Source: an uncultured Syntrophobacteraceae bacterium
GTDB lineage: Bacteria > Desulfobacterota > Binatia > UBA9968
Length of the DNA stretch: 64,000 nt
Assembly (NCBI GenBank): GCA_964572145.1
Contig: CAZNES010000004.1
Location: 13,443 to 77,442 of the forward strand
Direction of reading: 5' to 3'
Each line of letters opens with the position of its first letter. Position 1 is the first letter of the stretch. Of this stretch, positions 29,795-48,801 are shown piece by piece. The notes under the pieces are model-generated. The model was given only the letters and a program-made list of their open reading frames with translations. It did not search any database and had not been told where the DNA came from. The translations under genes were made by a program, and so were the position numbers.

Positions 29795-29821
29795 TAGAAC
29801 GGCGAGGAATCCTAACTGCCC

Positions 29822-31463: not shown

Positions 31464-32336
31464 ATGTTAAATGCGTTAAGCGTTGATGTAGAAGACTACT
31501 ATCAAGTCTCGGCCTTTGAGTCGGTGGTTCGGTTCGAGGAGTGGGGCCGTCGTGAGAGTCGAGTGGAGTGGAATACCCATCGCGTCTTGGATCTTCTCGA
31601 TGAATATGACGTAAAGGCCACTTTTTTTGTTTTGGGCTGGGTTGCCGAAAGAAACCCCACGCTGGTGCGGATTATCTCGAAGCGCGGTCATGAAGTCGCC
31701 TCTCACGGATATGCCCATCAACTTGTTTATACTCAGACGCCCGAGGCGTTCCGAGAAGAAACCCGGCGCGCTAAGAAAATCACCGAAGATATCATCGGCC
31801 AGGCCATTATCGGCTACCGCGCGGCCAGTTATTCGATCACCGCGCGTAGCCTGTGGGCGCTGGACATTTTGGCCGAAGAGGGATTTCAGTACGATTCCAG
31901 CATTTTTCCAGTACGGCACGATCGGTATGGGATACCGGGCCACGAGCGATTTTTTCATATTCTCAACGGCAATGGACATCTCTCCATCGCCGAGATTCCT
32001 CTCTCGACCGTCCGAATTGCGGCATTAAATATTCCCATCGCCGGCGGCGGGTATTTGAGGCTATTGCCATACTCGATGACTCATCTCGCTTTGCTTTACT
32101 TGAACCGGCTGGAAGGCCAGCCGGCTATCGTTTATTTTCACCCCTGGGAGATTGATCCGGACCAGCCGCGGATCGATGCCAGTAGGACCAGCCGGTTTCG
32201 GCACTATACGAACTTAGGCGGCATGGAGCGTAAACTGCGCAAGCTCTTGGCTAACTTCTCTTTTGCCCCGATACGCGAGGTTTACCAGGGTAGCTTCAGC
32301 ATGCCCGTGAACGCTGTGCGGAGTGATGCAGCCTGA
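31464..32336 (+). CDS. Polysaccharide deacetylase family protein (PEP-CTERM-locus subfamily)
   Basis: ATG at 31464; NodB-homology motifs (LSVDVEDYY, TFFVLGW, HGYAH). Confidence 0.8.
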   Translation: MLNALSVDVEDYYQVSAFESVVRFEEWGRRESRVEWNTHRVLDLLDEYDVKATFFVLGWVAERNPTLVRIISKRGHEVASHGYAHQLVYTQTPEAFREETRRAKKITEDIIGQAIIGYRAASYSITARSLWALDILAEEGFQYDSSIFPVRHDRYGIPGHERFFHILNGNGHLSIAEIPLSTVRIAALNIPIAGGGYLRLLPYSMTHLALLYLNRLEGQPAIVYFHPWEIDPDQPRIDASRTSRFRHYTNLGGMERKLRKLLANFSFAPIREVYQGSFSMPVNAVRSDAA

Positions 32337-33382: not shown

Positions 33383-34234
33383 ATGGAAGTCACGGAACCA
33401 CACCCGGCCATTGATATCCCGGTTGTTCGGATCGACGCCTTGGACAACCGGTTTTTATGGGAACTGCGGGAAATGTGGCAGCACCGGGAACTGCTGTATT
33501 TTCTCATTTGGCGTGAGGTCAAGGTACGGTATAAACAAACCGCCATCGGCATTTGGTGGGCGGTCCTTCAACCCTTCATGATGATGGTGATCTTCGCGGT
33601 CATCTTCGGTAAATTTGCGAACATTCCCTCCGACGGTTTTCCGTATCCGCTTTTTGCCTACACCGCGCTCCTCCCGTGGATATATTTTTCTCAGGCAGTC
33701 ACTCGCAGCGCCTATAGTCTCGTGGGCGACGCGAGTTTGCTCCAGAAAGTTTACTTTCCCCGCTTGATTCTCCCCTTAGCGGCGGTAATTGTGCCGCTGA
33801 TAGATTTTTTGTGTAGTGTTTTGGTGCTGCTAGGCATGCTCTTCTGGTACGGTGTAACACCGACCGCCGCCTGGCTGACCTTGCCGATTTTTTTATTCAT
33901 GGCTTTTTTGACTGCGCTTGCGGTAGGACTTTGGCTGGCGCCGCTGAATGTCCGATATCGGGACGTCAACGTCGCTATCCCCGTTTTAATTCAGTTATGG
34001 ATGTACGCTTCACCGATTGTGTATCCGACGAGCATGGTGCCGGAAAAATGGCGCTTGCTCTACAGTCTCAATCCCATGGTCGGCGTCATCAACGGGTTCC
34101 GGTGGGCTCTGCTGGGGGACGCAACGGTGAATTGGTGGCCGGTCTTAGTCAGCGTCTTGATGATCGCGCTCGTTTCGTTCGTTGGAATCATTATCTTCAG
34201 GCGCGCCGAGCCGTTTTTGGCGGATATTATCTAA
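33383..34234 (+). CDS. ABC-2 type polysaccharide export permease (Wzm), copy 1
   Basis: 6 TM; YRDVNVAIPVLIQLWMYASPIVYP ABC-2 signature. Confidence 0.85.
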   Translation: MEVTEPHPAIDIPVVRIDALDNRFLWELREMWQHRELLYFLIWREVKVRYKQTAIGIWWAVLQPFMMMVIFAVIFGKFANIPSDGFPYPLFAYTALLPWIYFSQAVTRSAYSLVGDASLLQKVYFPRLILPLAAVIVPLIDFLCSVLVLLGMLFWYGVTPTAAWLTLPIFLFMAFLTALAVGLWLAPLNVRYRDVNVAIPVLIQLWMYASPIVYPTSMVPEKWRLLYSLNPMVGVINGFRWALLGDATVNWWPVLVSVLMIALVSFVGIIIFRRAEPFLADII

Positions 34235-34253
34235 CAAAGCGCGGTCAGCTTTT

Positions 34254-35507
34254 ATGAGCGATATCGCTATTAGCGCAGAAAATCTGAGTAAGCGATACTT
34301 TATCAATGTGCCGAGGTTTCGCCACGATACCTTGCGTGATCGTATCATCGATGTGGCGAGCGGGTTGTTTTCCCGCAACGGTTATTCCTCGCCGTCCGAG
34401 GGAAGCGTCTGGGCATTGAGCCAAGTCTCCTTTGAAATAACGAAGGGACAAGTCGTCGCGGTCATCGGTCGCAACGGCGCCGGAAAAAGCACTCTGTTGA
34501 AGATACTGTCTCGTGTGACCAAGCCGACGAGCGGTTCTGCGGTGATCCACGGCCGAGTCGGATCTCTCCTGGAGGTCGGCACGGGGTTTCACCCGGAGCT
34601 GACCGGCAGAGAGAACATCTATCTAAGCGGCGCCGTCTTGGGCATGCGCAAGGCTGCTATAGAGCGACATTTCGATGAGATCGTCGATTTTTCCGGTGTG
34701 GATAAGTTCATCGACACTCCCGTAAAGCGCTACTCGAGCGGTATGTTTGTCCGGCTGGCTTTTGCCGTGGCGGCGCATCTCGATTCCGAAATCCTCATCG
34801 TCGATGAAGCGCTGGCGGTGGGCGACGCGGCGTTTCAAAAAAAATGTTTGGGAAAGATGGGGGATATAGCGAAGGGTGGAAGAACCATCTTGCTCGTCAG
34901 CCATAACATGGGATTTGTTTCCAGCCTGACTCAATCTGCCATGGTCTTGGAAAACGGCAGGCAAAAGTTCTTCGGTGATACCGCCCGAGCCGTTCCCGTG
35001 TACCTGGCGAACGTCTCAAAAAAGGAGCGGGAAAATCTATTGGAGCATGCAAACCGCGCGCCGGGCATGAGACCGGCCTTCATCTCAGCCGGTCTCAGTG
35101 ACAGCGATGGACTAGCGCGGGACATCTTCTCCACGGGCGAAGAGTGGTCTCTGGAAATGGAATATGCTTGCGTGGACGAGGTAAAACTAGCCGGCGCCGG
35201 ATTCACGATCTCGACATCCGATGGCATTCTTGTGGGCGAGTTGAATTCCTTCATGTGTTTGCCGCCCCCTCATCGAATCGCGCCAAAAGGCAAAATACGA
35301 TTTTGCATCCCCGAGCTGCCGCTGTGTCCGGGGTCTTATACCGTAAGCCTCTTTTTGGTGAAGGACGATACTTTCCGCTACGATAGTATAGATTGCGCCC
35401 TCGATTTTTCGGTCGAGAAGAACGATCCGACCGGCACGGGATTCGTCCTTACACGAGCGCATGGCCTGTGCGCGTTAAAAGGCTCCTTCCAAGATACGGA
35501 TGGATAG
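34254..35507 (+). CDS. Polysaccharide ABC exporter ATP-binding protein (Wzt) with C-terminal carbohydrate-binding-like domain, copy 1
   Basis: ATG at 34254; Walker A GRNGAGKST, signature YSSGMFVRLAF, Walker B ILIVDEALAVGD; ~150-aa C-terminal extension. Confidence 0.9.
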   Translation: MSDIAISAENLSKRYFINVPRFRHDTLRDRIIDVASGLFSRNGYSSPSEGSVWALSQVSFEITKGQVVAVIGRNGAGKSTLLKILSRVTKPTSGSAVIHGRVGSLLEVGTGFHPELTGRENIYLSGAVLGMRKAAIERHFDEIVDFSGVDKFIDTPVKRYSSGMFVRLAFAVAAHLDSEILIVDEALAVGDAAFQKKCLGKMGDIAKGGRTILLVSHNMGFVSSLTQSAMVLENGRQKFFGDTARAVPVYLANVSKKERENLLEHANRAPGMRPAFISAGLSDSDGLARDIFSTGEEWSLEMEYACVDEVKLAGAGFTISTSDGILVGELNSFMCLPPPHRIAPKGKIRFCIPELPLCPGSYTVSLFLVKDDTFRYDSIDCALDFSVEKNDPTGTGFVLTRAHGLCALKGSFQDTDG

Positions 35508-35590
35508 CGCGTTGGCGACTTAAACCCATCCACAGCCGAGCATTGCCCTAGCGGGAGATTTGAGGCAGTTCAAGTATTACGGGAGATCTG

Positions 35591-36514
35591 ATGGAAGTTA
35601 CGACTCAATCTGATGATGCTTCCAGCCGCGTGCCCGGTGAAAAGGAAACGATGTCTAGGTTCGACGTGCGCGACGAAAAACAAGAAAAGCCGGATCTGCC
35701 GAGCATTCGTATCGAGCATTCCCGCGGTTGGGTTTCGCTTCGACTCCGGGAGCTATGGGATCATCGAGAGCTTCTTTATTTCCTGGTCTGGCGTGACGTG
35801 AAAGTACGCTACAAGCAGGCGGCCCTTGGCGCCACCTGGACAGTAATCCAACCGCTGATCACGATGATGATCTTTACCGTGATCTTCAGCTATTTTGCGA
35901 AAATATCTACGGCGGGGGTGCCTTACCCGCTTTTTGTTTTCAGCGCTCTGTTGCCTTGGTACTATTTTGCGTCGGCGTTCGCCCGCGGCGGCAACAGCCT
36001 TTTGGGCGACGCCCATCTAATCGAGAAGGTTTACTTTCCGCGCTTGATTCTTCCGCTTTGCGCTGTGACCACCCCGCTGATGGATTTCTTGTTCAGTTTT
36101 GTAGTTCTGATTGGCCTGATGTTCTGGTTCGGAATCACGCCTACGTGGAACGTAATGGTCTTACCTTTTTTCGTTTGTCTAGCGTTGCTGACCGCTCTTG
36201 CAACGTGTCTTTGGCTCGCGCCTCTCAATGTCAGATACCGCGACATCGGCCACACCATCCCGTTTCTGATTCAGGTATGGATGTATGCTTCTCCGGTGGT
36301 TTATCCGGTGAGCATGATTCCGGAGCGATGGCGCTTGCTCTACAGCCTGAACCCGATGGTAGGCGTGATCGAGGGCTTCCGCTGGGCACTATTCGGCAAC
36401 AAGAGACCGGCTTTCGACTTGATGGCGGTGAGCGTCGCGATGGTGTTGCTGCTGCTTTGGGGCGGAGCGATGTTCTTTCGGCGGATGGAACGGACGTTTG
36501 CGGATATCGTATGA
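35591..36514 (+). CDS. ABC-2 type polysaccharide export permease (Wzm), copy 2
   Basis: ~65% identical to the 33383-34234 product over the core; the start may be an internal Met. Confidence 0.85.
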   Translation: MEVTTQSDDASSRVPGEKETMSRFDVRDEKQEKPDLPSIRIEHSRGWVSLRLRELWDHRELLYFLVWRDVKVRYKQAALGATWTVIQPLITMMIFTVIFSYFAKISTAGVPYPLFVFSALLPWYYFASAFARGGNSLLGDAHLIEKVYFPRLILPLCAVTTPLMDFLFSFVVLIGLMFWFGITPTWNVMVLPFFVCLALLTALATCLWLAPLNVRYRDIGHTIPFLIQVWMYASPVVYPVSMIPERWRLLYSLNPMVGVIEGFRWALFGNKRPAFDLMAVSVAMVLLLLWGGAMFFRRMERTFADIV

Positions 36515-37138
36515 TGACAGCCGACGGTCGACCGCCGACGGTAGACGGACGACGGCCGGTGAGAGACCGCCGACAGTAGACGGTCCATGGCCCTTGGTCC
36601 ATCGTCCACGGTCCGCCATCGTCAGTCCCTCGTCAACCGTCTGCGGTCAGCGGTCGGTATTTTGTTAAATGTACAAATTTGAGAAATTAGAAGTTTACCA
36701 GTTGGCTCTCCAATACACGGATATGATTTACAGCCTCACGGAAAAGCTTCCGAAGAACGAGGAACACAATCTGAAGTCTCAAATAATACGGGCCGCCACT
36801 TCGGTCGTGCTCAATATTGCCGAAGGCTCGACCGGTCAGAGTGATGCGGAGCAAAGACGGTTCCTGGGTATGGCAATTCGTTCGCTTTTGGAAACTGTAG
36901 CCTGCCAACAACTCATTGAACGTCGTCGATATGTTAACAAGGAAGAACTATCTAAGGATTACGAGTTTAGCCAGATGCTTTACGCGAAGCTCCAAGCCAT
37001 GCGTCGCTCGCTCCAAAAAAGCAGGAATGAAAAGTGAAGACCCTTATTGGCTGTCCGCCGTCGCCCATCAATGGTCAGCGATCTTCTTCATCAGTCTACC
37101 GTCCTCTGTCTACCGTCAATCGTCGTTAATTTAATACC
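36515..37138. mobile_element. Inverted-repeat-flanked cassette carrying a four-helix-bundle (23S rRNA IVS family) gene, inserted between wzm2 and wzt2
   Basis: Upstream CGACGGTAGACGG / CGACAGTAGACGG plus GACCGCCGACGG; downstream the reverse complements GTCTACCGTC (x2) and CCGCCGTCGCC; lower local GC. Confidence 0.35.
36669..37037 (+). CDS. Four-helix-bundle protein (23S rRNA intervening-sequence protein family)
   Basis: MYKFEKLEVYQLALQYTDMIYSLTEKLPKNEEHNLKSQIIRAATSVVLNIAEGS... matches the family consensus (FExLxVWQ.A..L...IY..T..FP..E.Y.L.SQ..RAA.S...NIAEG). Confidence 0.75.
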   Translation: MYKFEKLEVYQLALQYTDMIYSLTEKLPKNEEHNLKSQIIRAATSVVLNIAEGSTGQSDAEQRRFLGMAIRSLLETVACQQLIERRRYVNKEELSKDYEFSQMLYAKLQAMRRSLQKSRNEK

Positions 37139-38479
37139 ATGAGCGACATTGCCATCAGAGTCGAGAATCTCTCCAAGCAGTATAAAATCGGAGTGGCCCA
37201 GTACCGTCACGATTCCATACGGGATCATCTGACGGAGTGGGTTAAGTCGCTGTTCGTTCGCAATGGCACTCCCTCTCCCTCAACTCTCGTCACTGAACCC
37301 TCCGCTCTTGGCCCTCAGGCCTCAGCGCCCAGCGGTCATCCGTCTTCGGTCGACGGTCGTTCAGATACCATTTGGGCCCTCAAGGATGTCTCGTTCGAAG
37401 TCAAGCAGGGCGAAGTAATCGGCATCATCGGTCGCAACGGCTCAGGAAAAAGCACGCTGCTCAAGATTCTCTCCCGCATCACCGAACCGACCAGCGGTTT
37501 TGTCGACATTCACGGGCGGGCAGGCTCCCTGCTGGAAGTCGGCACAGGCTTTCACCGCGATCTTACCGGGAGGGAAAATATCTATCTCAACGGCGCTATT
37601 CTGGGAATGAAGAAGGCGGAGATTGAGCGTAAATTCGACGAGATCGTTGATTTCTCGGGGGTGGAGAAGTTCATTGACACGCCGGTCAAGCGATATTCGA
37701 GCGGCATGAACGTACGCCTGGCTTTCGCGGTTGCGGCTCATTTGGACCCGGAGATTCTAATCTTGGACGAGGTGCTGGCCGTCGGCGACGCCGATTTTCA
37801 GAAGAAGTGCCTGGGCAAGATGGGCGATGTAGCCAAGGAAGGTCGAACGGTCTTGTTCGTCAGTCATAATGCTGTGGCAATAAAGAATCTGTGTCACAAA
37901 GGTATCATGCTCGAAGGGGGCACAATTGCATTCAATGGCCAAGCGGAAGACGCCGTGGATTTTTATCTTGAGAGCGTAGAGAAAAAAGAGCAGATTTGCA
38001 GATCCCCTGTGGTTGATCTGAGCAAGGCTCCGGGAAGGCGCGCCGGCTTCGCTCCGTTACTACAACGGCTCGAGCTTGTCACGGAAGGCGACCGGCCCGT
38101 AACAGACGGTCTGCCGGTCGGCGCTTCGTTAACGGCGCGGATACATTTTCGGTTAGAAAAACCCGCCTCGAACGTTCACACGAACATCGCGTTCGACAAC
38201 CTCTTTGGACAACGAATCTTTCATGCCCACAGCGGTTATGATGCCGATTACCAACAAGTGACGCGGGTAGGTGACCAAAGATGTATATGTGAGATCCCCT
38301 GTCTTAATCTGATTCCTGGGGAGTACAAGATTAAAGTAGGGCTCGATATCGACGGTGCTCCTGGGGACGGTGTAGAAGATGCCGTCCGTCTTAGGATTTT
38401 TGAGTCTGATTTTTACGGCACTGGAAAAATTCCACGGAGCGGTACGTTCGTTATGAAGCATTACTGGCGCTTCATCTAA
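37139..38479 (+). CDS. Polysaccharide ABC exporter ATP-binding protein (Wzt) with C-terminal carbohydrate-binding-like domain, copy 2
   Basis: Walker A GRNGSGKST, signature YSSGMNVRLAF, Walker B ILILDEVLAVGD; C-terminal domain divergent from copy 1. Confidence 0.9.
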   Translation: MSDIAIRVENLSKQYKIGVAQYRHDSIRDHLTEWVKSLFVRNGTPSPSTLVTEPSALGPQASAPSGHPSSVDGRSDTIWALKDVSFEVKQGEVIGIIGRNGSGKSTLLKILSRITEPTSGFVDIHGRAGSLLEVGTGFHRDLTGRENIYLNGAILGMKKAEIERKFDEIVDFSGVEKFIDTPVKRYSSGMNVRLAFAVAAHLDPEILILDEVLAVGDADFQKKCLGKMGDVAKEGRTVLFVSHNAVAIKNLCHKGIMLEGGTIAFNGQAEDAVDFYLESVEKKEQICRSPVVDLSKAPGRRAGFAPLLQRLELVTEGDRPVTDGLPVGASLTARIHFRLEKPASNVHTNIAFDNLFGQRIFHAHSGYDADYQQVTRVGDQRCICEIPCLNLIPGEYKIKVGLDIDGAPGDGVEDAVRLRIFESDFYGTGKIPRSGTFVMKHYWRFI

Positions 38480-38519: not shown

Positions 38520-39572
38520 GTGAACCAAAAAATATTACTCATTGGTCTCGGCGGGTTTGGCCGAAATCATCTTCGCGCATGGCACGAAATGGGTATGGGA
38601 GACAATCTCTTTGTGGCCGAGCTCAATTCAGAGCGGCACCGAGAGTGTCGATTGGTTGGGATGCCCGAAGAGAGAATCACCACAGATTATCGCACCGTGC
38701 TGGATCGAGTGGACGTGGTGGATGTAGTGACTCCCTCCACCAGCCATTTTGAAATCTGCAAGGCGGCACTGTTGGCGGGAAAAGATGTTTTCGTAGAAAA
38801 GCCCATGACGATGACTTCGAAAGAAGCCGTCGATTTGGCCAATCTCGTTGTAGAGACGCGACGTATCCTTCAAGTGGGCTATTATTACCGCTTCCATCCT
38901 ATCTCTCAGTATTTGAAGGAGAGGATCCGTGCCGGAGCGTTGGGAGACCTGAGATACCTGTCTGGCAATTTCATGGGGTTTAAACGAGCGCGAACGGATG
39001 TAGGCGTTACTCACACGGATGGTATTCACTTTCTCGATCTATTCAACTGGTTCGCGGGCGGACTTCCAGAGCAAGTTTATGCTGAAACGCGGGACCATTT
39101 CGGGCGTGGAATGGAGGACTGGTCTCTGGTCGTGCTGCGTTATCGGGACGGAACGGTTGCAAAGGTTGAATGCGGTTATATTCAGCCCGGCAGATGGCAC
39201 GATAAAGTAGTGCCGAATGCTATGACGACAAAAGAAATTTTTGTCTGTGGAACTAAGGCCACCGTCGAGGCCGATTTCGAAACCGAGAATTTCGTGGTCC
39301 ACGATGTACGTCACGAATTTCAGCAAAACACTTGGGTTCCTGTAGGAAGCGGAAGCCAACTGCCCCAGGTAGGCACGGCAACACCCATTCAAATGATTTG
39401 TGCCGAGCTGCGCGCGTTCCTGGAATGCGTGGCTTCCAGAGGACGTCCTGGCAGTAACGTGATCGGCAGCGGCGTCGTACTGGCGAAGGTGATGGAAGCC
39501 ATTTATGAGTCGGCCCGGCAAAACAGGCCGATCACGCTGCAATGGACAGCCGAGGAAGCGAAAAGCCTTTAA
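38520..39572 (+). CDS. Gfo/Idh/MocA-family NAD(P)-dependent oxidoreductase
   Basis: GTG start; N-terminal LLIGLGGFGRNHL Rossmann motif; EKP motif (VFVEKPMT). Confidence 0.8.
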   Translation: MNQKILLIGLGGFGRNHLRAWHEMGMGDNLFVAELNSERHRECRLVGMPEERITTDYRTVLDRVDVVDVVTPSTSHFEICKAALLAGKDVFVEKPMTMTSKEAVDLANLVVETRRILQVGYYYRFHPISQYLKERIRAGALGDLRYLSGNFMGFKRARTDVGVTHTDGIHFLDLFNWFAGGLPEQVYAETRDHFGRGMEDWSLVVLRYRDGTVAKVECGYIQPGRWHDKVVPNAMTTKEIFVCGTKATVEADFETENFVVHDVRHEFQQNTWVPVGSGSQLPQVGTATPIQMICAELRAFLECVASRGRPGSNVIGSGVVLAKVMEAIYESARQNRPITLQWTAEEAKSL

Positions 39573-39584
39573 GGAAAGCAGACG

Positions 39585-40448
39585 ATGAAAGATATCACGG
39601 ACGGCGATCTTAAAGACCGCATTCCACTAGCTGCAAAAAAAAACGAGAGCCATCGCTCAACCATCAAGGTAGGTGGAGTGGTTATCGGAGGGGAGCGGGT
39701 CGTGGTCATGGCGGGACCGTGCGCGGTGGAAAGCCAGGAGCAGGTGCTTGAGATCGCTCATCGTGTTAAAGCTGCTGGCGCAGCGGTTCTTCGGGGTGGC
39801 GCGTACAAGCCTCTAACTTTCCCGTATCGCACGGATAGCTCTTTCGAGCTGCGGGAGCTTGGGCTCAAGTACCTTGCTGAGGCCGGCAAAGCCGCCGGTT
39901 TGCCCGTGGTCACCGAGGTTATGGACCTACGCCTAGTGGAGACCGTAGCAGAATTCGCAGATATCCTCCAGATTGGCGCACGCAACATGCAGAACTTCCC
40001 TCTATTGGAGGAAGTAGCCAAAACCAGGAAGCCGGTGATGCTCAAGCGTCACTTTGGGTGCAGCTTGCGGGACTGGCTAGGAGCAGCCGAGTATATCCTC
40101 TATGGCGGAAATCCTAATGTGATCCTCTGTGAGCGCGGTGTGGTCGCGCCCCATACCCACGCCGTCGCCTCGAGGTTCATTGTGGACATTCAGGCGGTAC
40201 CCGCGGTTAAAGAGTATTCGCACCTTCCGGTCATCGTCGATCCCAGTCACTCCACCTTCAAACGCAGCTATGTTGCTCCCGTCGCCCGTGCTGCGATAGC
40301 TGCCGGCGCAGACGGAATCATCATAGACGTACATCCCGTTCCCGAAAAGGCGGCGGTCGATCCGCTTCAGGCGCTCTCCTACGAAAGCTTCTCCGGCTTG
40401 ATGCAGGAGCTTCGCGGCATAGCTCGTGTGATGGGTCGGAATATCTGA
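39585..40448 (+). CDS. 3-deoxy-7-phosphoheptulonate (DAHP) synthase class I-beta-like PEP aldolase with altered phosphate-binding motif
   Basis: [58 protein letters not shown] all match DAHPS-I-beta/KDO8PS-superfamily motifs; the canonical KPRTS is replaced by KPLTF (39807-39821). Confidence 0.8.
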
Positions 40449-40457
40449 GCGCAAGAG

Positions 40458-41567
40458 ATGCTGGATGAACTTCAATCATACTTGAGTAATCGCCTTGATC
40501 CTTTAACCGGTACGCACAAGTGGGTCGCGGGTATTATCGGCGATCACCCGTCCCAATACGCCAAGAGCCCATCGTTGTGGAACCAAGCTTTTACGACGTT
40601 AGGGCTCGACGGGATTTTCCTTCCGTTCGATGTGGATGCCCCGAATCTCCGCTCCTTGCTGGAGATCTTGCGCCAGAGCGAACACGTCGTCGGTTTCAGT
40701 GTGACGGTTCCTTACAAGGTAGAAGTAATTAAGTTCCTCGACGATCTGGACCAGAAGGCGCGTCAGATCGGCGCCGTCAACACGGTGGCGCGAACTCAGG
40801 ACGGAAAACTTGTAGGCTACAACACCGATGGTCAAGGGTTTCTGGACATGCTGACCAAGCCGCTGCCCCGTCAGCAATGTCCATTCTTTGAAAAATTAGA
40901 GGGACGGCATGCATTGTTGATTGGAGCAGGCGGCGCCGCCAGAGCCGTAGCTTTCTTCCTGGCCGAAGCCCTCGGAGATAAGGGTCGTCTTACGATTGCC
41001 AATCGCGATTCCAATAAGGCCCGAGAGCTGGTCAACGCCGTGAAGGATACGAATTCTTCTAATGTGGACTACATCGCCGAGACGGATATCCACGGAACGG
41101 TCTCAACCTTAGACCTGATTATCAATGCCACTACCAAGGGCCAGAGTGGAGTCCGAAGGCTGGTTGGGAATCGAGCGACGTGCCTGGAGCCCTATTCTGC
41201 CTTGGCGCCTGCGAACCCCGTCGAGCTTGATGGGGAATCATTTTCCAGCGAGTCTGCGTTCTACCGTTCCTGGTATCAGCAGTCCTACCCAGACATAGAG
41301 ACCAACGTTCGTCTAGCCAATAAGATTTTGACGGCGACACCGATGAATACTGCCTTTGTCGATCTTATTTATTCACCCCTGGAGACGCGGACACTCGCGA
41401 TGGCTCGTTGGAGTGGTCACCGAGTCTTGAACGGGAGAGAGATGAATGTCCGTCAGGCAGCCGACGCCTTTGTCAACCGTGTCATGAGTCCCTACTTAAC
41501 CGCGATGGGATGGGATCTGCGGAGTACTTATCGACGCGTCTCTGAGATTATGGGCCAAGTTTGGTAA
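40458..41567 (+). CDS. Shikimate dehydrogenase (AroE)-family NAD(P)-dependent dehydrogenase with ~100-aa C-terminal extension
   Basis: AKSPSLWN, SVTVPYK (catalytic Lys), GYNTDGQG (catalytic Asp), LLIGAGGAARAV, DLIINATTKG motifs. Confidence 0.8.
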   Translation: MLDELQSYLSNRLDPLTGTHKWVAGIIGDHPSQYAKSPSLWNQAFTTLGLDGIFLPFDVDAPNLRSLLEILRQSEHVVGFSVTVPYKVEVIKFLDDLDQKARQIGAVNTVARTQDGKLVGYNTDGQGFLDMLTKPLPRQQCPFFEKLEGRHALLIGAGGAARAVAFFLAEALGDKGRLTIANRDSNKARELVNAVKDTNSSNVDYIAETDIHGTVSTLDLIINATTKGQSGVRRLVGNRATCLEPYSALAPANPVELDGESFSSESAFYRSWYQQSYPDIETNVRLANKILTATPMNTAFVDLIYSPLETRTLAMARWSGHRVLNGREMNVRQAADAFVNRVMSPYLTAMGWDLRSTYRRVSEIMGQVW

Positions 41568-42607
41568 GGGAATTCATAACCCACATGCAAAGTCTCGACA
41601 GGATCCATAAGAAACCCACTGTCGTGGCGGCTTTGGAAAGCAACCACAACGGAGACCTATCTCTAGCCAAGCGGATGGTGGATATAGCAGTTGACTGCGG
41701 ATGCGACGCAATTAAGATCCCGGTGCGGCGGGTCAAAGAATGCTACACGGAAGAAACGCTTCAACAGCCCAACTACAAGCATCCCGAGCTCGGCGCTACC
41801 TACGGCGATGCCTTAGAGAGATTGGAACTAAAAGCGGACGCTTTGCGCTCCGTTCGCGATCATTGCAGAGGACGCATCTCCTTCATCGGCGCTCCGTATG
41901 ACTTGTCTTCGATGGACTTGCTCGGAGATCTAGACGTGGATGGCTACCAGATTGATCCGCCGTTGCTTTGCCACCAACCGTTAGTTCAAGCGATAGCCGA
42001 TCGGCAAAAAAAAGTTCTGGTGTGTGTCGGCATGTGCTCGGAGCAAGAACTCGCGGCGGCACTACAGATTCTGAAGAACGTGCCCGTTATCCTGCTCCAC
42101 TGCGTTATGGCCAAATCTCTTCGCCTGGAGGATACCGCGCTCGACTATATTCCTTACCTGCGTCGGCGTTTTGGATGCGAGATAGGATACCTGGGATTTG
42201 AGGACGGCATTCATGCCGCGCTAACGGCCTACACGATCGGCGCGACGACTATTGAGAAGATATTCACAATCGATCGCCATCTGCCCGGCCCTGGACGCGC
42301 CAATAGCCTCGACCGAGAAGAACTCAGGGCTCTGGTTCAGGGTTTAGTGGCATTGGAATCCTCGCTCAAGCCCTCCGGTCCCCGCCAGCTCCTTCCCGTG
42401 GAGTTGGAGACATTCACCGATGAACGGTGCTCAGTCGTAGCCGCTCGTCCTCTAAAGGCGGGCACTACCATTCAAGCTGATATGCTTACGGTTAAGGCGG
42501 CGCTCAATGGAGTCAGTCCCCAGTTGCTCTCTTGGCTGGAGGGCAAGCGGTTGCTTTTCGACTTGCCGTTAGACGCGCCGATTACCTTCGGGGTCGTGGA
42601 TCTGTGA
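41561..42607 (+). CDS. NeuB-family nonulosonic/ulosonic acid synthase (PEP-dependent) with C-terminal SAF domain
   Basis: NHNGDLSLAKRMVDIAVDCGCDAIK NeuB signature; C-terminal SAF/antifreeze-like domain. Confidence 0.8.
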   Translation: MVREFITHMQSLDRIHKKPTVVAALESNHNGDLSLAKRMVDIAVDCGCDAIKIPVRRVKECYTEETLQQPNYKHPELGATYGDALERLELKADALRSVRDHCRGRISFIGAPYDLSSMDLLGDLDVDGYQIDPPLLCHQPLVQAIADRQKKVLVCVGMCSEQELAAALQILKNVPVILLHCVMAKSLRLEDTALDYIPYLRRRFGCEIGYLGFEDGIHAALTAYTIGATTIEKIFTIDRHLPGPGRANSLDREELRALVQGLVALESSLKPSGPRQLLPVELETFTDERCSVVAARPLKAGTTIQADMLTVKAALNGVSPQLLSWLEGKRLLFDLPLDAPITFGVVDL

Positions 42608-43281
42608 TTTCTGTAGTTATCCGCACCAAGAATGAGGAACGGTGGCTCCGGCGATGTCTCACGGCCGTGGCGCTTCAGACATATCGTCCTCTGGAAGTTA
42701 TCGTGGTGGATAATGCCTCTACCGACGGCACCGTCGGTATCGCCAAGGAGTTCGGATGTCGCATCCTTTCAATCGATGACTGCGATTTCAGTTTCGGACG
42801 CGCCCTCAACCAAGGTATTGCAGTTGCAGAAGGAGAATTGATCGCTATTCTCTCCGGCCATTGCATTCCGTTGAATGAAAGATGGCTCTCCTGCCTCGCC
42901 GCGTCGTTCGCGGATGAGCTGGTGGCGGGTGTCTATGGGCGGCAGGAACCGTTGCCCGATAGCGATCCTTTCGACAAACGGGATCTATGGACGACCTTCG
43001 GCCTCGAGCGGCGCGTGCAAACCCGAGACATTTTTTTTCACAATGCAAATTCCAGCATCCTGCGGCGCGTGTGGAACGAGGTCCCTTTCGACGAAGAAAT
43101 TTCCGGCGTGGAGGACCGCGATTGGGCGAAAAAAGTCCTAGGAAGAGGTTACAAGATTATTTATGAGCCCAGCGCCAGCGTGTATCACCATCATGGTATT
43201 CACCAGGGCCGGAATGTGGAGCGGGCCGAACGTGTCGTACGGGTCATCGAACTGATCAACAATGGGGGAAGAAAAGAGTGA
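42604..43281 (+). CDS. Glycosyltransferase family 2
   Basis: GTG start overlapping the neuB-like stop; ISVVIRTKNE...VIVVDNASTDGT...DCD GT-A motifs. Confidence 0.7.
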   Translation: MISVVIRTKNEERWLRRCLTAVALQTYRPLEVIVVDNASTDGTVGIAKEFGCRILSIDDCDFSFGRALNQGIAVAEGELIAILSGHCIPLNERWLSCLAASFADELVAGVYGRQEPLPDSDPFDKRDLWTTFGLERRVQTRDIFFHNANSSILRRVWNEVPFDEEISGVEDRDWAKKVLGRGYKIIYEPSASVYHHHGIHQGRNVERAERVVRVIELINNGGRKE

Positions 43282-43985
43282 CTGAGAGATCTCATGTCGT
43301 ATGCATCATCCCAGCTCGGGGGGGATCAAAAGGGCTTCCGCGAAAGAATGTTTGCAGGCTCGCAGGGAAACCGCTGATCGCTTACTCCGTCGAGGCCGCT
43401 CGAAAGTGCCCGCTGATTGATCGAGTCATCGTTTCTACGGACGACGAGGAGATCGCTGATATTGCCAGATCCTATGGAGCTCAGGTGCCTTTCAAGCGGC
43501 CGGCTGAGTTGGCCGTCGATGACGCCACGACGGAAAGCGTCCTCCAGCACGCGGTGCGCTGGTTGGAAGAAAATGAAAAGTATTCGGTTGATATCGTGGT
43601 CTTTCTCCAGGCCACCGACATTTTTCGCAAGCAATGGATGCTGAACGAGGTGGTTCAACGAGTGTTGAGGGACTCTACCATTGACTCTGCCTTCGTCGCG
43701 TTCGAGACGCACAAAAACTTCTGGCGCATTGTCGACAAGCAGCCAGTTCGGTTGGCGGACATACCTTATGGAGCACGTCAAAAGCGCGAGCACGTGTACC
43801 GGGAGGATACGGGCATAGCTTGTGCCACCAGGGCAGAGTTTATCAAGCAGGGAAAAAGATTGGGTCCGCGGGTTTCTATTGTGGCTAATACCGATGCCGC
43901 CTCCTTTATCGATATTGAGGATGAATTTACGTTCTGGCTTGCGGAGCAGGTGCTGTTGAGCGGGAAGCGGACGGTGAATGACTAA
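43278..43985 (+). CDS. Acylneuraminate/ulosonate cytidylyltransferase (NeuA/KdsB family), copy 1
   Basis: IIPARGGSKGLPRKN signature; 4-nt overlap with the upstream gene. Confidence 0.8.
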   Translation: MTERSHVVCIIPARGGSKGLPRKNVCRLAGKPLIAYSVEAARKCPLIDRVIVSTDDEEIADIARSYGAQVPFKRPAELAVDDATTESVLQHAVRWLEENEKYSVDIVVFLQATDIFRKQWMLNEVVQRVLRDSTIDSAFVAFETHKNFWRIVDKQPVRLADIPYGARQKREHVYREDTGIACATRAEFIKQGKRLGPRVSIVANTDAASFIDIEDEFTFWLAEQVLLSGKRTVND

Positions 43986-44719
43986 TGAGTGAGAGAATTA
44001 TCGCTATCATTCCCATCCGGGGCTCGGACGATGAATTCAAAGAGAGTCCCAGCCCTATGCTGGGGGAAAGGCCTCTCGTAGAGTACACCCTTTTAGCGGC
44101 GAAGGAGGCTCGGCTTCTGGACCGGGTGATTGTGTCCACCGACAGCGAGGCGGTAGCTGACTTCTGCCGGCGATATGGGGTTGAAGTTCCCTTCATCAGG
44201 CCAGCTTCGCTAGCCGAACCGACCGCTACCGTTACGGATGTTTTACTTCACTGCGTTGAATGGCTGGAGAGCAATGAGCACGATCACCCCGACTGGGTCA
44301 TCAAGTTGGAAATCACTCATCCTTTCAGGCCGACGGGCATCATCGATACCCTGATCAAGACCGCGCTGATGCAGAATGTGGATTCGGCTTTCCTCGCCTA
44401 TGAGGAAGTTCATGGCTTTTGGACTCTGGATCATGACGGCAGTCCCCGACTGGTAGGCGAGGAGGGGAATCTTCCCAGAAAAACCCGCAAGCCTTTTTAT
44501 AGAGACTCAAGCGGGCTAGTCGCGATGACTCGCGTGGCCAATCTCAAAGCAGGCAAGCTCTATGGTAACAATCTTGGACTGATTCCGTTTCGGGACCTCT
44601 TTGCCATCGTCGATACGCACGAAGGCGCCGGTTCATCCTATCGGGAACGAATGGGATTTCGGCTCGGCGAAATCCTTGCAGCTGAATTTAACAAAACTGT
44701 TTCCTGGAAGGGAAAATGA
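43985..44719 (+). CDS. NeuA/KdsB-family cytidylyltransferase paralog with divergent N-terminal nucleotide-binding loop, copy 2
   Basis: IAIIPIRGSDDEFKESPSPMLGERPL replaces the PARGGSKG loop; the rest aligns with copy 1 (DRVIVSTD..., VDSAFLAYE). Confidence 0.6.
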   Translation: MSERIIAIIPIRGSDDEFKESPSPMLGERPLVEYTLLAAKEARLLDRVIVSTDSEAVADFCRRYGVEVPFIRPASLAEPTATVTDVLLHCVEWLESNEHDHPDWVIKLEITHPFRPTGIIDTLIKTALMQNVDSAFLAYEEVHGFWTLDHDGSPRLVGEEGNLPRKTRKPFYRDSSGLVAMTRVANLKAGKLYGNNLGLIPFRDLFAIVDTHEGAGSSYRERMGFRLGEILAAEFNKTVSWKGK

Positions 44720-44923: not shown

Positions 44924-45790
44924 ATGTATGCGCAGACGAACATTCAGCTTTTCAATCAACTCCAGCTCGAAGGCTATTCGAATGCTGAGCTGAGTTTAAT
45001 CCGCGACGCCTATGAGCTGGCCATGCATCTGTTCACTGGGGTCTATCGAGCGTGTGGCAAGACGTTTATTGCCCATGTTGTTGGTACAGCGAGTGTTCTC
45101 GGTACCCTCCACACATCTGCGAAATTAGTCGCTGCGGGTCTTCTCCATGCCGCCTACGTGTTCGGCGACTTTGGTGAGGCGATAAATGGGATCTCGCCCA
45201 GGAAACGCCAAAAGGTCAGGGAAGCTGTGGGGGGGGATGTGGAGGAATACATTGCTAGATATACAGCCTTCAAGTGGGGACCGAAGGACATTGGCGCTGT
45301 CTATGAAGGCTTTCATGAGCTTGGGCCGACTGATCGCGACGTTCTTTTGATACGCCTGGCAAATCAAGTGGATGACTTAATGGATCTCGGTGCCTTGTAT
45401 CGCCTTGCTGGAGAGCAGAAGCGTCAGCACTACGTTGGGATTGGTCCCATGACGGTAGAAATGGCCGAGAAACTGGGATTTCCTACCTTAGCTGCTGAAC
45501 TGACAAGAGTGGTGAGAGAAACGGCTTCGACGGAAATTCCCGCCGAACTCCGTCGTCGGTATACGAATGAGATCCTGATCGCACCAAAGTCTTATTACCG
45601 ACGGCCGGCAATAATGTTTCGACAAAAACTGAGTCGAGCTCTTGATATCTTACATCGTAGTCTGGGTCTCTTAGCTAATGAACTGAAGCGGCTAAGTTGG
45701 CAGGTCGTGGAATTCACTAGCCCCATACGGGTTCGATTAGGTATCACTCGGGCGAATCTAGAACGGCTCAAAATATTTTTAACCCGCTAG
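44924..45790 (+). CDS. Hypothetical protein (weak HD-like helical domain)
   Basis: 288-aa ORF with island-like codon usage; FIAHVVGTASVL...LLHAAYVFGDFGE resembles an HD-like fold without the canonical HD dyad. Confidence 0.35.
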   Translation: MYAQTNIQLFNQLQLEGYSNAELSLIRDAYELAMHLFTGVYRACGKTFIAHVVGTASVLGTLHTSAKLVAAGLLHAAYVFGDFGEAINGISPRKRQKVREAVGGDVEEYIARYTAFKWGPKDIGAVYEGFHELGPTDRDVLLIRLANQVDDLMDLGALYRLAGEQKRQHYVGIGPMTVEMAEKLGFPTLAAELTRVVRETASTEIPAELRRRYTNEILIAPKSYYRRPAIMFRQKLSRALDILHRSLGLLANELKRLSWQVVEFTSPIRVRLGITRANLERLKIFLTR

Positions 45791-45813: not shown

Positions 45814-46587
45814 ATGGCCTCGGTCGAGAATAGTTATACGATGAGATTCAATGCAAAGTCGCTTTTGCTGAGCAACAGGGTGACAGAGATTGTTTATGAT
45901 CCGTTCTGCCTTTTTGAAGTGAACGACTATTTGCCTGTGGAAATGTATCAGGCTCTACTGGAGAGTTTTCCTCAAGCGCCGTGGTTTGTGGAACAAACCG
46001 AGGGCGACAAACGCCGGCTCAACTCTTCATACAGTCCAGAGGTTCTTAAAGATTTTTGTCGCGAGCATCCGCTCTGGGAACAATTCTTCCAATTTCTGGG
46101 CTCAGCGGCTTTCCTTCGCGACCTGAACGCCGTGGTGCGCCTTCCATTATACAAATCTCGCGGCCTTTCAGGCTTGAGGCGCTGGTCGCAGACGGCGAAT
46201 CACGGTTCCTTGACGGCGATTATAAAGACGCCGGTGACAATGCAATTCGAGTTTTCCAGGTTGGGGAGAGGAAGCTTTGTCCCGCCGCATACCGACGATC
46301 AAAAAAAACTCGTAAGCTTGCTGCTCTATTTTCCCGATCAAAAGTGGCAGGCGAATTACGGTGGAGCCACGGAGTTCTATCGCGCCAGGACCCTCGCCAA
46401 GGGAAATAATTGGAACAATCAAAGGGTCTCGTTCGAGGATTTGGTCCCGTTCGCCAGCGCGCCGTTTGTGGCGAATCGGCTCGTAGCCTTCGTCAAATCG
46501 AGTAATTCTTATCATGGCGTCCGACCGATCGCTTGTCCCGAAGGAATGGCGCGCGCTTCTCTAAATATTAACGTGAATCGCATTTAA
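45814..46587 (+). CDS. 2OG-Fe(II) oxygenase superfamily protein (PhyH-like)
   Basis: HxD...H facial triad candidates (PPHTDDQ ... SYHGV). Confidence 0.45.
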   Translation: MASVENSYTMRFNAKSLLLSNRVTEIVYDPFCLFEVNDYLPVEMYQALLESFPQAPWFVEQTEGDKRRLNSSYSPEVLKDFCREHPLWEQFFQFLGSAAFLRDLNAVVRLPLYKSRGLSGLRRWSQTANHGSLTAIIKTPVTMQFEFSRLGRGSFVPPHTDDQKKLVSLLLYFPDQKWQANYGGATEFYRARTLAKGNNWNNQRVSFEDLVPFASAPFVANRLVAFVKSSNSYHGVRPIACPEGMARASLNINVNRI

Positions 46588-47731: not shown

Positions 47732-47868
47732 CTTCGGTCTTGTCGTTCAGAGTGAGCGGCGTAAATTCCGCACGGCTTTCTTTTTTCCACAAGTTGCCTG
47801 CAAGGTTTAATTAGCTAGAACGAAGAGGCCATTTGCCTTCGCGCCAGCGCAGTCAGGAAGGAAGTAAA

Positions 47869-48801
47869 ATGAACCCCAAACGGCTTGCCAAGAGTTTTGC
47901 TCATTGGACTATCCCGCCGGGGTTTCAAGACATATTACGGTCTTGCCTTGTAAGAAACGGAGGTATGCCCGCCACTGACCCCCAAGAGGACGCCGCTATC
48001 CTGGAAAAGCAAGCAATCCCGAACCGCGAAAAGCAAGCAATCCTGAACCGCAATATGAAGTTTCTGAATAAACATAGAGGTCGGCGATGCTTTGTGTTGG
48101 CGACGGGTCCCTCGATTTATAAGCAAGATCTGAGGCCTCTTCAGAACGAGTGGTGCATCGCTGTCAATGAGTTTTACAAGCACGAGCATTATAGCCTCAT
48201 TAAGCCCGCTTATTATACATTGCCGCCTACTTGGACAACCCGCCTAGACATGGGAAAAAGATTGAGAAGATTAGGAGAATTGAAGCAACTTTCTCAAGAC
48301 GAGATATTCTTTTTTGACGTGACCGACAAAAAGTGGGTGGAGAGTTCGAACTTTGCCGACAATCTGGAGCGGGTGCACTACCTCGACCTTAGAGATGATT
48401 TTACCCCCTCAAGTATAGACCTTACGGGATGCATGCCAGGCCCGCAGTCTACGGCATTAATTGCGACGTGGATTGCCATGTATATGGGGTTTTCTGAGGT
48501 ATATCTGCTCGGATGTGACTACGATGTTTTGTGGAAATGGGATGGGTCCTCACGCTACCTTCGAAAGGACCTTTACAAGCATTTCTACCAAGGTGCGCCT
48601 ACTGTAGGCTACGAGCCGATGGACCTTGATGGCGAACTTCGCGGGCACCTACGGCTGAGAGAACAGTATCGGTGGACTGATGATATTGCGGCGCGCCAGA
48701 ACACAAGGCTTGTTAACGCTAATCCACAGAGCTACCTGGATATCCTCCCCAGAGTGCCGTTAGAGTCAGTTCTTCTACCAGAATCCCCCGGCGTACGATG
48801 A
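47869..48801 (+). CDS. Cst-II/GT42-like (DUF115-related) CMP-ulosonic acid transferase candidate
   Basis: FVLATGPSI / CIAVNEFY / YLLGCDYD align with the AGNGPSL / CNQFY / YLSGIDFY motifs of Campylobacter Cst-II-type sialyltransferases; ATG at 47869 after AGGAAGGAAG. Confidence 0.55.
   Translation: MNPKRLAKSFAHWTIPPGFQDILRSCLVRNGGMPATDPQEDAAILEKQAIPNREKQAILNRNMKFLNKHRGRRCFVLATGPSIYKQDLRPLQNEWCIAVNEFYKHEHYSLIKPAYYTLPPTWTTRLDMGKRLRRLGELKQLSQDEIFFFDVTDKKWVESSNFADNLERVHYLDLRDDFTPSSIDLTGCMPGPQSTALIATWIAMYMGFSEVYLLGCDYDVLWKWDGSSRYLRKDLYKHFYQGAPTVGYEPMDLDGELRGHLRLREQYRWTDDIAARQNTRLVNANPQSYLDILPRVPLESVLLPESPGVR
48004..48051 (+). repeat. Perfect-but-one 24-nt in-frame tandem duplication (2 copies) inside the GT42-like gene
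   Basis: GAAAAGCAAGCAATCC(C/T)GAACCGC x2 encoding EKQAIPNR-EKQAILNR. Confidence 0.7.

Follow-up and report, generated by a model that had tools for sequence, protein, structure and literature searches.

Why would relatives of two enzymes of aromatic amino-acid biosynthesis, a DAHP synthase (DAHP, the 7-phosphate of 3-deoxy-D-arabino-heptulosonic acid) and a shikimate dehydrogenase, be encoded side by side with NeuB- and NeuA-family proteins in a bacterial polysaccharide locus? The question is raised by seven consecutive genes, called here the cassette, at positions 38520-44719 of a 64,000-nucleotide stretch of DNA from an uncultured Syntrophobacteraceae bacterium (GTDB lineage Bacteria; Desulfobacterota; Binatia; UBA9968; assembly GCA_964572145.1, contig CAZNES010000004.1, positions 13,443 to 77,442 of the forward strand). 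This whole stretch is the window. An earlier note on the same DNA had proposed for the cassette a pathway to a non-canonical ulosonic acid, with two different aldolases that condense phosphoenolpyruvate (PEP) and with tandem CMP-transferases. From the sequence comparisons described below, the cassette would be a widespread pathway for a CMP-activated, non-canonical 3-deoxy-2-ulosonic acid, similar to Kdo (3-deoxy-D-manno-octulosonic acid), for exopolysaccharide or flagellin. We give this reading a probability of roughly 0.55.

Related loci (numbered L001, L002, and so on) were compared by tblastn with the window proteins and through precomputed Pfam gene tables. A greedy clustering of the longest open reading frames (ORFs) for extra partners was set aside, because antisense shadow ORFs in high-GC loci confounded the calls.

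Gene layout of the cassette

The seven ORFs are all on the + strand. Their coordinates, order, and domain assignments are those of the earlier note, and gene set and order are borne out by the ORF coordinates and the family profile matches. The first gene (38520..39572) encodes a Gfo/Idh/MocA NAD(P)-dependent oxidoreductase, here GFO (GFO_IDH_MocA, 5.5e-22; PF01408, PF22725, and PF02894). The second (39585..40448) encodes a predicted metal-dependent PEP aldolase derived from the class I-beta DAHP synthases (DAHP_synth_1, PF00793, 1.5e-63, 214.7 bits), here the variant DAHPS. Then come SDHL (40458..41567), a long-form NADP(H) oxidoreductase of the shikimate dehydrogenase (SDH) family with 369 aa and the domains Shikimate_dh_N (PF08501) and Shikimate_DH (PF01488), and a NeuB-like protein with a TIM barrel and a SAF domain (41561..42607; PF03102, 160 bits; PF08666, 28 bits). 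A small GT2-like protein of the GT-A fold (42604..43281; Glycos_transf_2, PF00535, 2.9e-23, 83 bits) precedes two members of CTP_transf_3 (PF02348): CT1 (43278..43985; 1.7e-28), a cytidylyltransferase of the NeuA/PseF type, and its paralog CT2 (43985..44719), for which PF02348 is the only match (5.2e-12, 46.5 bits).

The packing is operon-like: the first three genes are separated by 12 and 9 nt, and at the remaining junctions the genes overlap by 7, 4, 4, and 1 nt. The longest ORF of the GT2-like gene begins at 42532. Its start is most likely the GTG at 42604, which overlaps the stop codon of the NeuB-like gene as GTGA and gives a product of ~225 aa, the size of the homologs. A scan for terminator-like sites gave no excess over chance expectation. 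The window genes 3′ of 44719 are not conserved together with the cassette, with the exception of a gene for a 2-oxoglutarate (2OG)-Fe(II) oxygenase, and positions 38520-44719 are therefore taken as the conserved unit. In public annotations, members of the two aromatic-pathway families appear as DAHP synthase and shikimate dehydrogenase.

A predicted PEP aldolase with an altered aldose site

The variant DAHPS is above the NCBIfam cut-offs for class I-beta enzymes (NF006421, 366 bits for a cut-off of 335; TIGR01361, 317 for 268), and the KDO8PS profile gives 112 bits for a cut-off of 314. Its best match in the PDB is the DAHPS of A. pernix (1vs1, 4e-79); KDO8PS reaches only 3e-24. The protein was aligned with solved DAHPS, canonical DAHPS from control loci, and 14 cassette copies. 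The PEP residues are intact (the R of VLRGG, the K of KP, the R of GARN, the K of LKR, and the R of CERG). The metal ligands Cys, His, and Asp are retained, with the metal Glu changed into Asp in most copies. The roles of these residues in DAHPS are described, including those of the Arg and Thr of KPRT(S), which bind erythrose 4-phosphate (E4P) (PMC6362186). In the 14 aligned cassette loci, the canonical VLRGGAFKPRTSPYSFQG becomes VLRGGA(Y/F)... with KPLTFPYR. Compared with KPRTS, the Arg is a Leu, the next Ser is a Phe, and there are an insertion of 3 aa and a new Arg (in PYR). With the PEP and metal residues kept and the E4P motif replaced, the variant DAHPS would be competent for PEP and metal but with a rebuilt aldose site.

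The replacement is constant in the family: KP(L/M/I)TFPY is present in 120 of the 120 closest homologs, and the R follows in 117 of them. Among the best 150 representatives of clusters at 50% identity, from a library of 1.8 billion proteins, 128 of the 143 readable sequences keep KPR(T/S) and only about seven have KP(L/A/C)TF. An independent sample of metagenome loci was drawn with the alignment of the variant DAHPS; since its conserved peptide patterns are shared with the canonical enzymes, the matches listed were mostly canonical DAHPS, which served as controls. Among these matches, the eight loci with KPL(T/S)FPYR all have cassette neighbors (8/8), against a single canonical locus out of 67 (the neighbor there is an SDH gene; Fisher p = 5e-10).

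Judged by residues, no cassette protein other than the variant DAHPS is a catalytically intact enzyme for PEP condensation. The altered site would accommodate an aldose without phosphate, or else a longer sugar phosphate bound by the new Arg. The lack of a conserved phosphatase in the cassette mildly favors the non-phosphorylated aldose.

A DAHPS of Dehalococcoidia (L079, 3673-4407), encoded ~1.8 kb from a canonical AroE, keeps KPRTS. It shares two traits with the variant DAHPS, KRHFG and an insertion of 3 aa after ERGI, and may be an evolutionary intermediate form.

The NeuB-like, GT2-like, and cytidylyltransferase-like proteins

The equivalog scores of the NeuB-like protein are low (NeuB_NnaB, 190 bits for a cut-off of 400; PseI, 134 for 340). 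In sialic acid synthases, the characteristic residues are the Mn ligands His215 and His236, the PEP-binding Lys53, Lys129, and Ser/Thr110, and Arg314 of the SAF domain; His215 and His236 are fully conserved (PMC11339185). With respect to NeuB of N. meningitidis (1xuu numbering), the window protein has E25A, Q55P, T110A, K129Q, S132P, E134L, S154C, N184M, Y186K, S213L, H215F, H236I, D247G, and R314A. The positions of H215, H236, and K129 are also substituted in the NeuB-like proteins of L090, L001, L023, L031, L084, L002, and L039. The copy of L032 retains the motif SDH, and the canonical NeuB/LegI proteins of L003, L033, and L089 retain H215, H236, and K129. As aligned, the NeuB-like protein lacks the catalytic residues of a sialic acid synthase, both Mn ligands and the PEP-binding K129, S132, S213, and N184 being gone.

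The two cytidylyltransferase-like proteins are not equivalent either. The P-loop of CT1 is intact, with IPARGGSKG(L/I)PxKN (IPARGGSKGLPRKN) conserved across the cassette copies. CT1 gives 137 bits with the PseF model (cut-off 206) and matches NeuA 9ftb in the PDB (2.7e-29); the kdsB model reaches only 43 bits (cut-off 155). In the pathway, CT1 would probably serve as the CMP-sugar synthetase. In CT2, the loop reads IPIRGSDDEFKESPSP, with the pattern IP(I/V)RG.D.., and none of the 12 aligned copies retains either P-loop lysine. From this loop, CT2 is probably not a cytidylyltransferase.

In the GT2-like protein, the expected DXD position, as judged by alignment and not by structure, is occupied by SGHC in all full-length aligned cassette copies but that of L025 (SAHS). 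Natural fusions between GT2-like and CT2-like domains occur in L022 (~7341-8690, where the cytidylyltransferase copy is the CT2-type fusion domain) and in L094 (2825-4201; 458 aa, with Pfam GT2 and CTP_transf_3). The fusions suggest that the two proteins act as a unit.

Since the NeuB-like protein and CT2 have lost catalytic residues, one competent PEP aldolase and one competent CMP-transferase would be left. The two aldolases and two CMP-transferases of the earlier note are thus valid at the level of domains only. The second aldolase fails on its missing Mn ligands and PEP residues, and its gene is absent altogether from a variant cassette (L094/L095). Of the tandem CMP-transferases, only CT1 keeps its P-loop, while CT2, fused to the GT2-like protein in two loci, does not.

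Distribution and context of the cassette

The gene set recurs in more than 20 unrelated contigs, often with the identical order of seven genes, and spans at least eight phyla. The hosts are Dehalococcoidia (for example, L001/L007), Nitrospirota (L002 and L084, the latter being the complete genome of Nitrospira sp. Kam-Ns4a, OZ224218.1), Nitrospinota, Planctomycetes, Acidobacteria, Gemmatimonadaceae, Victivallales, and ‘Deltaproteobacteria’ metagenome-assembled genomes (MAGs). Other examples are L090, L091, and L092. The DAHPS-like, AroE-like, and NeuB-like genes, for which a neighborhood search had been suggested, are found together in many genomes. Because of this recurrence, and because the variant motif predicts the context (the Fisher test above), the arrangement is more than chance.

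In most loci, GFO adjoins the variant DAHPS on its upstream side. The window GFO is 54-69% identical to the gene at that place in L001, L002, L003, L010, L011, L014, L015, L023, and L025; Pfam GFO genes adjoin the variant DAHPS also in L084, L090, L091, L092, L094, and L100. Between loci, the identities are 60-80% for the variant DAHPS versus only 30-42% for the NeuB-like protein. The GT2-like protein is among the most conserved members (52-70%). In rearranged loci, the most consistent partners of the variant DAHPS are CT1, the GT2-like protein, and GFO, with an SDH in most. CT1 adjoins both the variant DAHPS and SDHL in L027, L036, L039, and L035, and is near the variant DAHPS in L094, L095, L098, L100, and L127.

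Enzymes for the supply of a hexosamine or hexose are not conserved in the cassette (no NeuC, LegG, PseG, aminotransferase, acetyltransferase, or UDP-/GDP-GlcNAc-modifying enzyme). In or near the cassettes of the related loci inspected, we did not observe cyclases of the AroB, AroD, or EEVS type. Other aro genes are found neither in any related locus nor among the scanned window ORFs.

The neighbors of the cassette point to its product. In the Nitrospirota loci L002 and L084, genes of the flagellar filament, with CsrA and FliW, have the cassette directly downstream of them. These filament genes encode flagellin in L002 and both FlgK and flagellin in L084. In L084, the cassette is followed by methyltransferases and an MptE-like (Maf-type) TPR protein of 1174 aa. 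In L091 and L092, a PF04413 gene comes directly after CT2; PF04413 is the N-terminal domain of WaaA-type (GT30) Kdo transferases. Capsule_synth (KpsC/S-like) genes are near the cassette in L003, L089, and L022. Characterized members of the WaaA/GT30, KpsC/KpsS, and MptE/Maf families use CMP-ulosonic acid donors, with KpsC/KpsS being beta-Kdo transferases. The presence of such genes beside the cassette is the strongest contextual argument for a CMP-activated, Kdo-like end product, and the CMP-activated ulosonic acid that had been proposed for the window remains the best reading.

Some neighbors are more local. In L092 (15799-19060), the cassette is followed by the WaaA/GT30-like gene and by genes for a SIS_2 protein (a GmhA-like isomerase), a HAD phosphatase, and a TAL_FSA transaldolase-family protein. 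In this single locus, the SIS_2/HAD/TAL trio may supply the precursor, perhaps an aldose of the heptose type. An asparagine-synthase-like glutamine amidotransferase (~620-645 aa) is encoded beside the cassette in L023 (3412-6359), L025, L039, and L002 (17001-18938), in the first three together with a SAM methyltransferase. These recurrent neighbors suggest amidation and methylation of the product in some lineages.

The two oxidoreductases

In an alignment of 26 sequences, the catalytic K87 (Lys of NVTxPxK) and D124 (Asp of NTD), N108, Q333 (Gln of MxxxQA), the glycine-rich NADP loop GAGGAARA with G156-A160, and R183 of the NR motif are invariant. The aroE model (TIGR00507) matches in two separate parts, with 178 bits for a cut-off of 200, and SDHL with its 369 aa exceeds the ~270 aa of the AroE architecture. 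In place of the carboxylate motif HSxSP, SDHL has YAKSP, with an Ala for the first Ser. The AlphaFold2 model (predicted local distance difference test, pLDDT, 94) contains an insertion of ~70 aa at ~229-297, made of a beta-hairpin and a long helix, and extra C-terminal helices. In a structure search of the PDB, no solved structure covers the insertion and the extra helices; the best matches are ordinary AroE, YdiB, and 5-ketofructose reductase.

In a neighbor-joining tree, the long-form SDHL proteins form a single clade apart from the canonical AroE of the same phyla (L040-L083; Nitrospirales, Dehalococcoidia). The family consists of proteins of 365-375 aa and is abundant in metagenomes. In a collection of species representatives, homologs are present in 36 genomes, all MAGs, with 39-51% identity over the full length. 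They belong to ‘Deltaproteobacteria’, Binatia, Syntrophobacter, Dehalococcoidia, Nitrospinota, Planctomycetes, Acidobacteria/Vicinamibacterales, Verrucomicrobia, Victivallales, Gemmatimonadaceae, and Bacteriovoracaceae. The separate SDHL clade and the altered E4P motif of the variant DAHPS agree with the view that the DAHPS-like and AroE-like proteins are specialized paralogs, tied to glycan genes across phyla.

SDHL genes also occur without the rest of the cassette. In MAGs of ‘Deltaproteobacteria’ and Binatia, solo SDHL genes lie directly downstream of a PrkA - DUF444(YeaH) - SpoVR operon (the solo loci are L004, L005, L009, L012, L013, L016, L017, L019, L020, L026, and L028-L030, with SDHL near 10001 in most). 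In the tree, the solo proteins are a subclade nested among the cassette-linked ones. In L003, a PrkA-YeaH-SpoVR operon is found a few kb from the cassette. In L002, two long-form SDH-like paralogs, 6517-7635 (372 aa) and 10001-11110 (369 aa), flank the pair of GFO and the variant DAHPS.

The best NCBIfam and PDB relatives of GFO are dehydrogenases acting on sugar or cyclitol rings. The matches include the model of an archaeal UDP-GlcNAc 3-dehydrogenase (108 bits), PDB 7bvj, DgpA, and inositol dehydrogenases.

A possible pathway and its alternatives

How could these proteins work together? The variant DAHPS would condense PEP with an aldose other than E4P into a 3-deoxy-2-ulosonic acid. GFO and SDHL would then use NAD(P) to oxidize and reduce ring carbons of the pyranose acid or of its precursor, with an epimerization or a keto-reduction as the net result. 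A pyranose ulosonic acid resembles quinate or dehydroshikimate and would thus be a plausible substrate of SDHL. An optional 2OG-dependent hydroxylation could come before the activation of the acid by CT1 with CTP. In the last step, a transferase specific to each locus would place the acid on a glycan. In Nitrospira, the target would be flagellin. In the window, it would be the polymer exported by the adjacent Wzm/Wzt, where the acid would possibly end the chain and be recognized by the C-terminal domain of Wzt. The NeuB-like, GT2-like, and CT2-like proteins would be conserved but catalytically divergent accessory or tailoring components, with the last two acting jointly.

Several points weigh against such a pathway. 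Three of the seven cassette proteins are left unexplained by it. About half of the long-form SDHL genes are solo, with no variant DAHPS within 10 kb, and in one Nitrospinota MAG the triad of GFO, variant DAHPS, and SDHL has no glycan gene within 10 kb. From the solo genes and this triad, the substrate of SDHL may not be limited to glycan synthesis: it may be a general metabolite, or SDHL could be a true shikimate dehydrogenase. The invariant new Arg of PYR could bind a phosphate, and the substrate of the variant DAHPS would then be phosphorylated. Finally, no recognizable transferase of the Kdo, sialyl, or Maf type was confirmed in the window by family profiles or by tblastn with the GT30-like, KpsC/S-like, and Maf-like proteins of related loci.

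The isolated genes would fit an alternative in which the triad makes a free or carbocyclic acid, similar to shikimate or quinate, or an acyl substituent, the product being used by glycan genes in some loci only. SDHL indeed retains nearly all shikimate-binding and catalytic residues, the Nitrospinota triad stands alone, and the solo SDHL genes have a housekeeping-like context. In L003, the triad abuts a complete Leg-type pathway with its own NeuB and cytidylyltransferase, which fits a substituent. However, a cyclase of the AroB, AroD, or EEVS type is missing in and near the cassettes, CT1, which is of the CMP-ulosonic-acid type, is the partner most tightly linked to the variant DAHPS across rearranged loci, and Kdo-transferase-like genes directly follow the cassette in L091 and L092. 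We consider a free acid or substituent unlikely. Quite improbable is the synthesis of two ulosonic acids in parallel, a 7- or 8-carbon acid by the variant DAHPS with one cytidylyltransferase and a nonulosonic acid by the NeuB-like protein with the other. Pfam does assign the NeuB-like protein and CT2 to the NeuB and CTP_transf_3 families, both are kept across phyla, and the L032 copy has its SDH motif. But the NeuB-like protein is without both Mn ligands, histidines that are fully conserved in sialic acid synthases (PMC11339185), and without most PEP- and sugar-binding residues; CT2 is without the P-loop lysines; no route to a free hexosamine or hexose is conserved; and the L094/L095 variant does entirely without the NeuB-like gene. 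Two active PEP aldolases were rejected on the loss of catalytic residues in the NeuB-like protein.

The remaining alternatives are more conventional. Ordinary aromatic amino-acid genes (an aroG-type DAHPS and an aroE) could merely sit inside a polysaccharide locus, as the public annotations and the class I-beta scores of the variant DAHPS would have it. Yet every copy of the variant DAHPS has other residues in place of the Arg and Ser that bind E4P, the variant motif goes with a glycan context that the canonical KPR-type loci lack, and SDHL is below the aroE cut-off, with its long insertion and separate clade, while a canonical AroE exists in the same phyla. The replaced motif, its tie to the context, and the clade and insertion of SDHL largely refute this explanation, which we hold to be very improbable. 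As no other aro gene accompanies the cassette, among the scanned window ORFs or in related loci, the earlier conclusion that it is not a shikimate pathway stands. The chance that we deal with an oddly annotated Kdo, Neu, Leg, or Pse locus of the canonical kind is next to nil. NeuB-, NeuA-, and GT-family domains are present in the cassette, and true Leg-type genes in some related loci, but the KdsA, NeuB, PseI, and PseF scores are all far below the cut-offs, the NeuB-like protein is degenerate, KdsD and KdsC are absent from the cassette, and UDP-/GDP-GlcNAc-modifying enzymes are not conserved in it. At the level of sequence, scores and absent enzymes refute a canonical locus, again in line with what had been claimed.

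The surrounding locus

The cassette is part of a polysaccharide island at ~22000-58000 with a GC content of 0.47-0.57, lower than in the flanks (0.57-0.63). Low GC is common for surface-glycan islands, and the dip is compatible with horizontal acquisition. Upstream of the cassette, at 22463-33366, lies an exopolysaccharide locus of the PEP-CTERM/XrtA type, with genes for a NusG-like protein, an AAA_22 ATPase, a TIGR03016-like outer-membrane protein (a weak match), Poly_export, Wzz/GNVR, a ParA-like ATPase, a Bac_transf priming transferase, a DUF3473 polysaccharide deacetylase, and a FemAB-like acyltransferase.

Between this locus and the cassette, at 33383..38479 on the + strand, there are two complete, tandem pairs of Wzm/Wzt ABC exporter genes (ABC2_membrane; ABC_tran and Wzt_C in both Wzt). 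They are separated by a gene for a 23S rRNA-intervening-sequence protein (36669-37037). With two exporters, there might be two polymers to export, or else two terminal modifications. In known systems, the C-terminal domain of Wzt recognizes a residue that ends the chain; in the WbbB system, this residue is beta-Kdo (PMC9445017, PMC9587256). By analogy, we infer that Wzt_C in the window could be linked to the cassette product, with a capping role for the acid.

Downstream, a gene for an HD-domain/DUF6817 protein (44924-45790) is not conserved with the cassette. The next one (45814..46587, + strand; PF13640) encodes the 2OG-Fe(II) oxygenase, a recurrent accessory and a possible tailoring hydroxylase. 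Over its full length, it has 42% identity (E 1e-58) with an oxygenase encoded in L092 between the variant DAHPS and SDHL, and a partial homolog is found at the edge of L032. Neither Pfam nor NCBIfam gives a significant match for the three ORFs 46604-47731, 47833-48801, and 48932-49915. The protein of 322 aa encoded at 47833..48801 (+ strand) has a sub-threshold MptE-like match (PF01973, E 1.6e-4, 21.9 bits for a cut-off of 34.6); it is a candidate transferase only and is not conserved with the cassette. As this is the one match given by these three ORFs, the nearby ‘Cst-II-like enzyme’ of the earlier note was not confirmed. Further downstream, there are genes for a methyltransferase, a pyruvyl transferase, glycosyltransferases, an epimerase/dehydratase, and a DegT aminotransferase.

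Toward the 3′ end of the window, a gene for a HAF-repeat protein (57765-58832) is followed by one for a protein of 1587 aa (58836-63599). The latter contains a Kelch propeller similar to galactose oxidase and glyoxal oxidase, two Laminin_G_3 (ConA-like) domains, and Big_13 along with further Ig-like domains. Encoded beside the exopolysaccharide locus, this protein may be secreted and may oxidize or bind carbohydrates. Toward the 5′ end, the genes at 6009-10293 encode an ABC transporter resembling the PhnS2/PhnU2/PhnT2 type for 2-aminoethylphosphonate, with all scores below the equivalog cut-offs. A DapA/aldolase-family gene (11115-12053) is near this Phn-like transporter.

Implications

Ulosonic acids (Kdo and the sialic, pseudaminic, and legionaminic acids) are key surface determinants. 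To our knowledge, all known routes to them use synthases of the KdsA or NeuB type. Full-text literature searches gave no description of the cassette. On the sequence comparisons, the odds are slightly in favor of a CMP-ulosonic-acid pathway whose synthase comes from another lineage and whose tailoring is of the SDH type. If this is true, there would be a third synthase lineage, derived from aromatic amino-acid metabolism, a new type of sugar, and a clear case of enzyme recruitment.

More tentatively, and with odds somewhat below even, the cassette could be the first route to a new class of bacterial ulosonic acids, with a DAHPS-derived synthase, SDH-like tailoring, and a new CMP-sugar chemistry by the degenerate NeuB-like, GT2-like, and CT2-like proteins. 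The product could then be a heptulosonic or heptulosaric acid (similar to 3-deoxy-heptulosaric acid, Dha), an epimeric octulosonic acid, or an acid of longer chain. The users would be many uncultured phyla and Nitrospira, on flagella and on exopolysaccharides. We know of no organism in which the biosynthesis of Dha is solved, and the cassette is, speculatively, one candidate for it.

The cassette hosts Nitrospira, Nitrospinota, Dehalococcoidia, Acidobacteria, and Planctomycetes are environmentally important and hard to culture, and the glycans of flagella and exopolysaccharides in such groups affect the formation of biofilms and granules. Under the current labels, DAHP synthase and shikimate dehydrogenase, these genes would bias the metabolism reconstructed from environmental genomes. 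The motif KPLTFPYR offers a simple recognition mark for genes of the variant DAHPS.

Comparison with known systems

In the WbbB system of Klebsiella O12 and Raoultella terrigena, which depends on a Wzm/Wzt ABC transporter, chains are terminated by beta-Kdo: an ulosonic acid caps the chain, and Wzt has a C-terminal carbohydrate-binding domain. The window is similar in that two Wzm/Wzt(Wzt_C) pairs are encoded directly upstream of the cassette, and differs in that no WbbB/GT99-like protein was recognized in it.

With steps 1 and 4 of the shikimate pathway (DAHPS I-beta, and AroE with its paralogs YdiB, RifI, and SdhL), the cassette shares the folds, the metal and PEP residues of DAHPS, and, in SDHL, the catalytic Lys and Asp of AroE and the NADP motif. 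The differences are the replaced Arg and Ser for E4P, the insertion, the extra C-terminal helices and YAKSP instead of HSxSP in SDHL, and the absence of AroB, AroD, AroK, AroA, and AroC nearby, in a context that is glycan, flagellar, or standalone. The 5-ketofructose reductase of Gluconobacter (PDB 7cok/7col) is likewise an enzyme of the SDH family, and its substrate is a keto-sugar, a precedent for carbohydrate redox in this family. SDHL matches 7cok with E 3e-26, at only ~26% identity. Unlike SDHL, the reductase is short (~280 aa) and without insertion, has a catabolic or redox role, and belongs to no CMP-sugar cassette.

The nonulosonic acid pathways, NeuBAC, Pse (PseBCHGIF), and Leg (LegBCHGIF), have in common with the cassette a CMP-synthetase of the NeuA type and a protein with the NeuB fold and SAF domain. 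Like them, the cassette is found in flagellin-glycosylation islands and exopolysaccharide loci, with MptE/Maf-like proteins. In contrast, its NeuB-like protein is without the Mn and PEP residues, enzymes that modify hexosamines or hydrolyze sugar nucleotides are not conserved, and the competent synthase belongs to the DAHP_synth_1 family.

From the Kdo pathway (KdsD-KdsA-KdsC-KdsB), the cassette differs in an aldolase that stems from DAHPS I-beta, with KPLTF where KdsA has KANRS, and in a cytidylyltransferase of the NeuA/PseF and not the KdsB type. The window cassette has neither a SIS (KdsD) nor a HAD (KdsC) gene, the SIS_2/HAD/TAL trio being present only in L092, and GFO and the SDH-like protein are without Kdo counterpart. 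Both systems would nevertheless follow one logic: a metal-dependent PEP aldolase of class I, from the DAHPS/KDO8PS superfamily, a 3-deoxy-2-ulosonic acid (presumed for the cassette), its activation with CMP, and its transfer. In L091, L092, L003, L089, and L022, genes similar to WaaA (GT30) or to KpsC/KpsS (GT107) flank the cassette.

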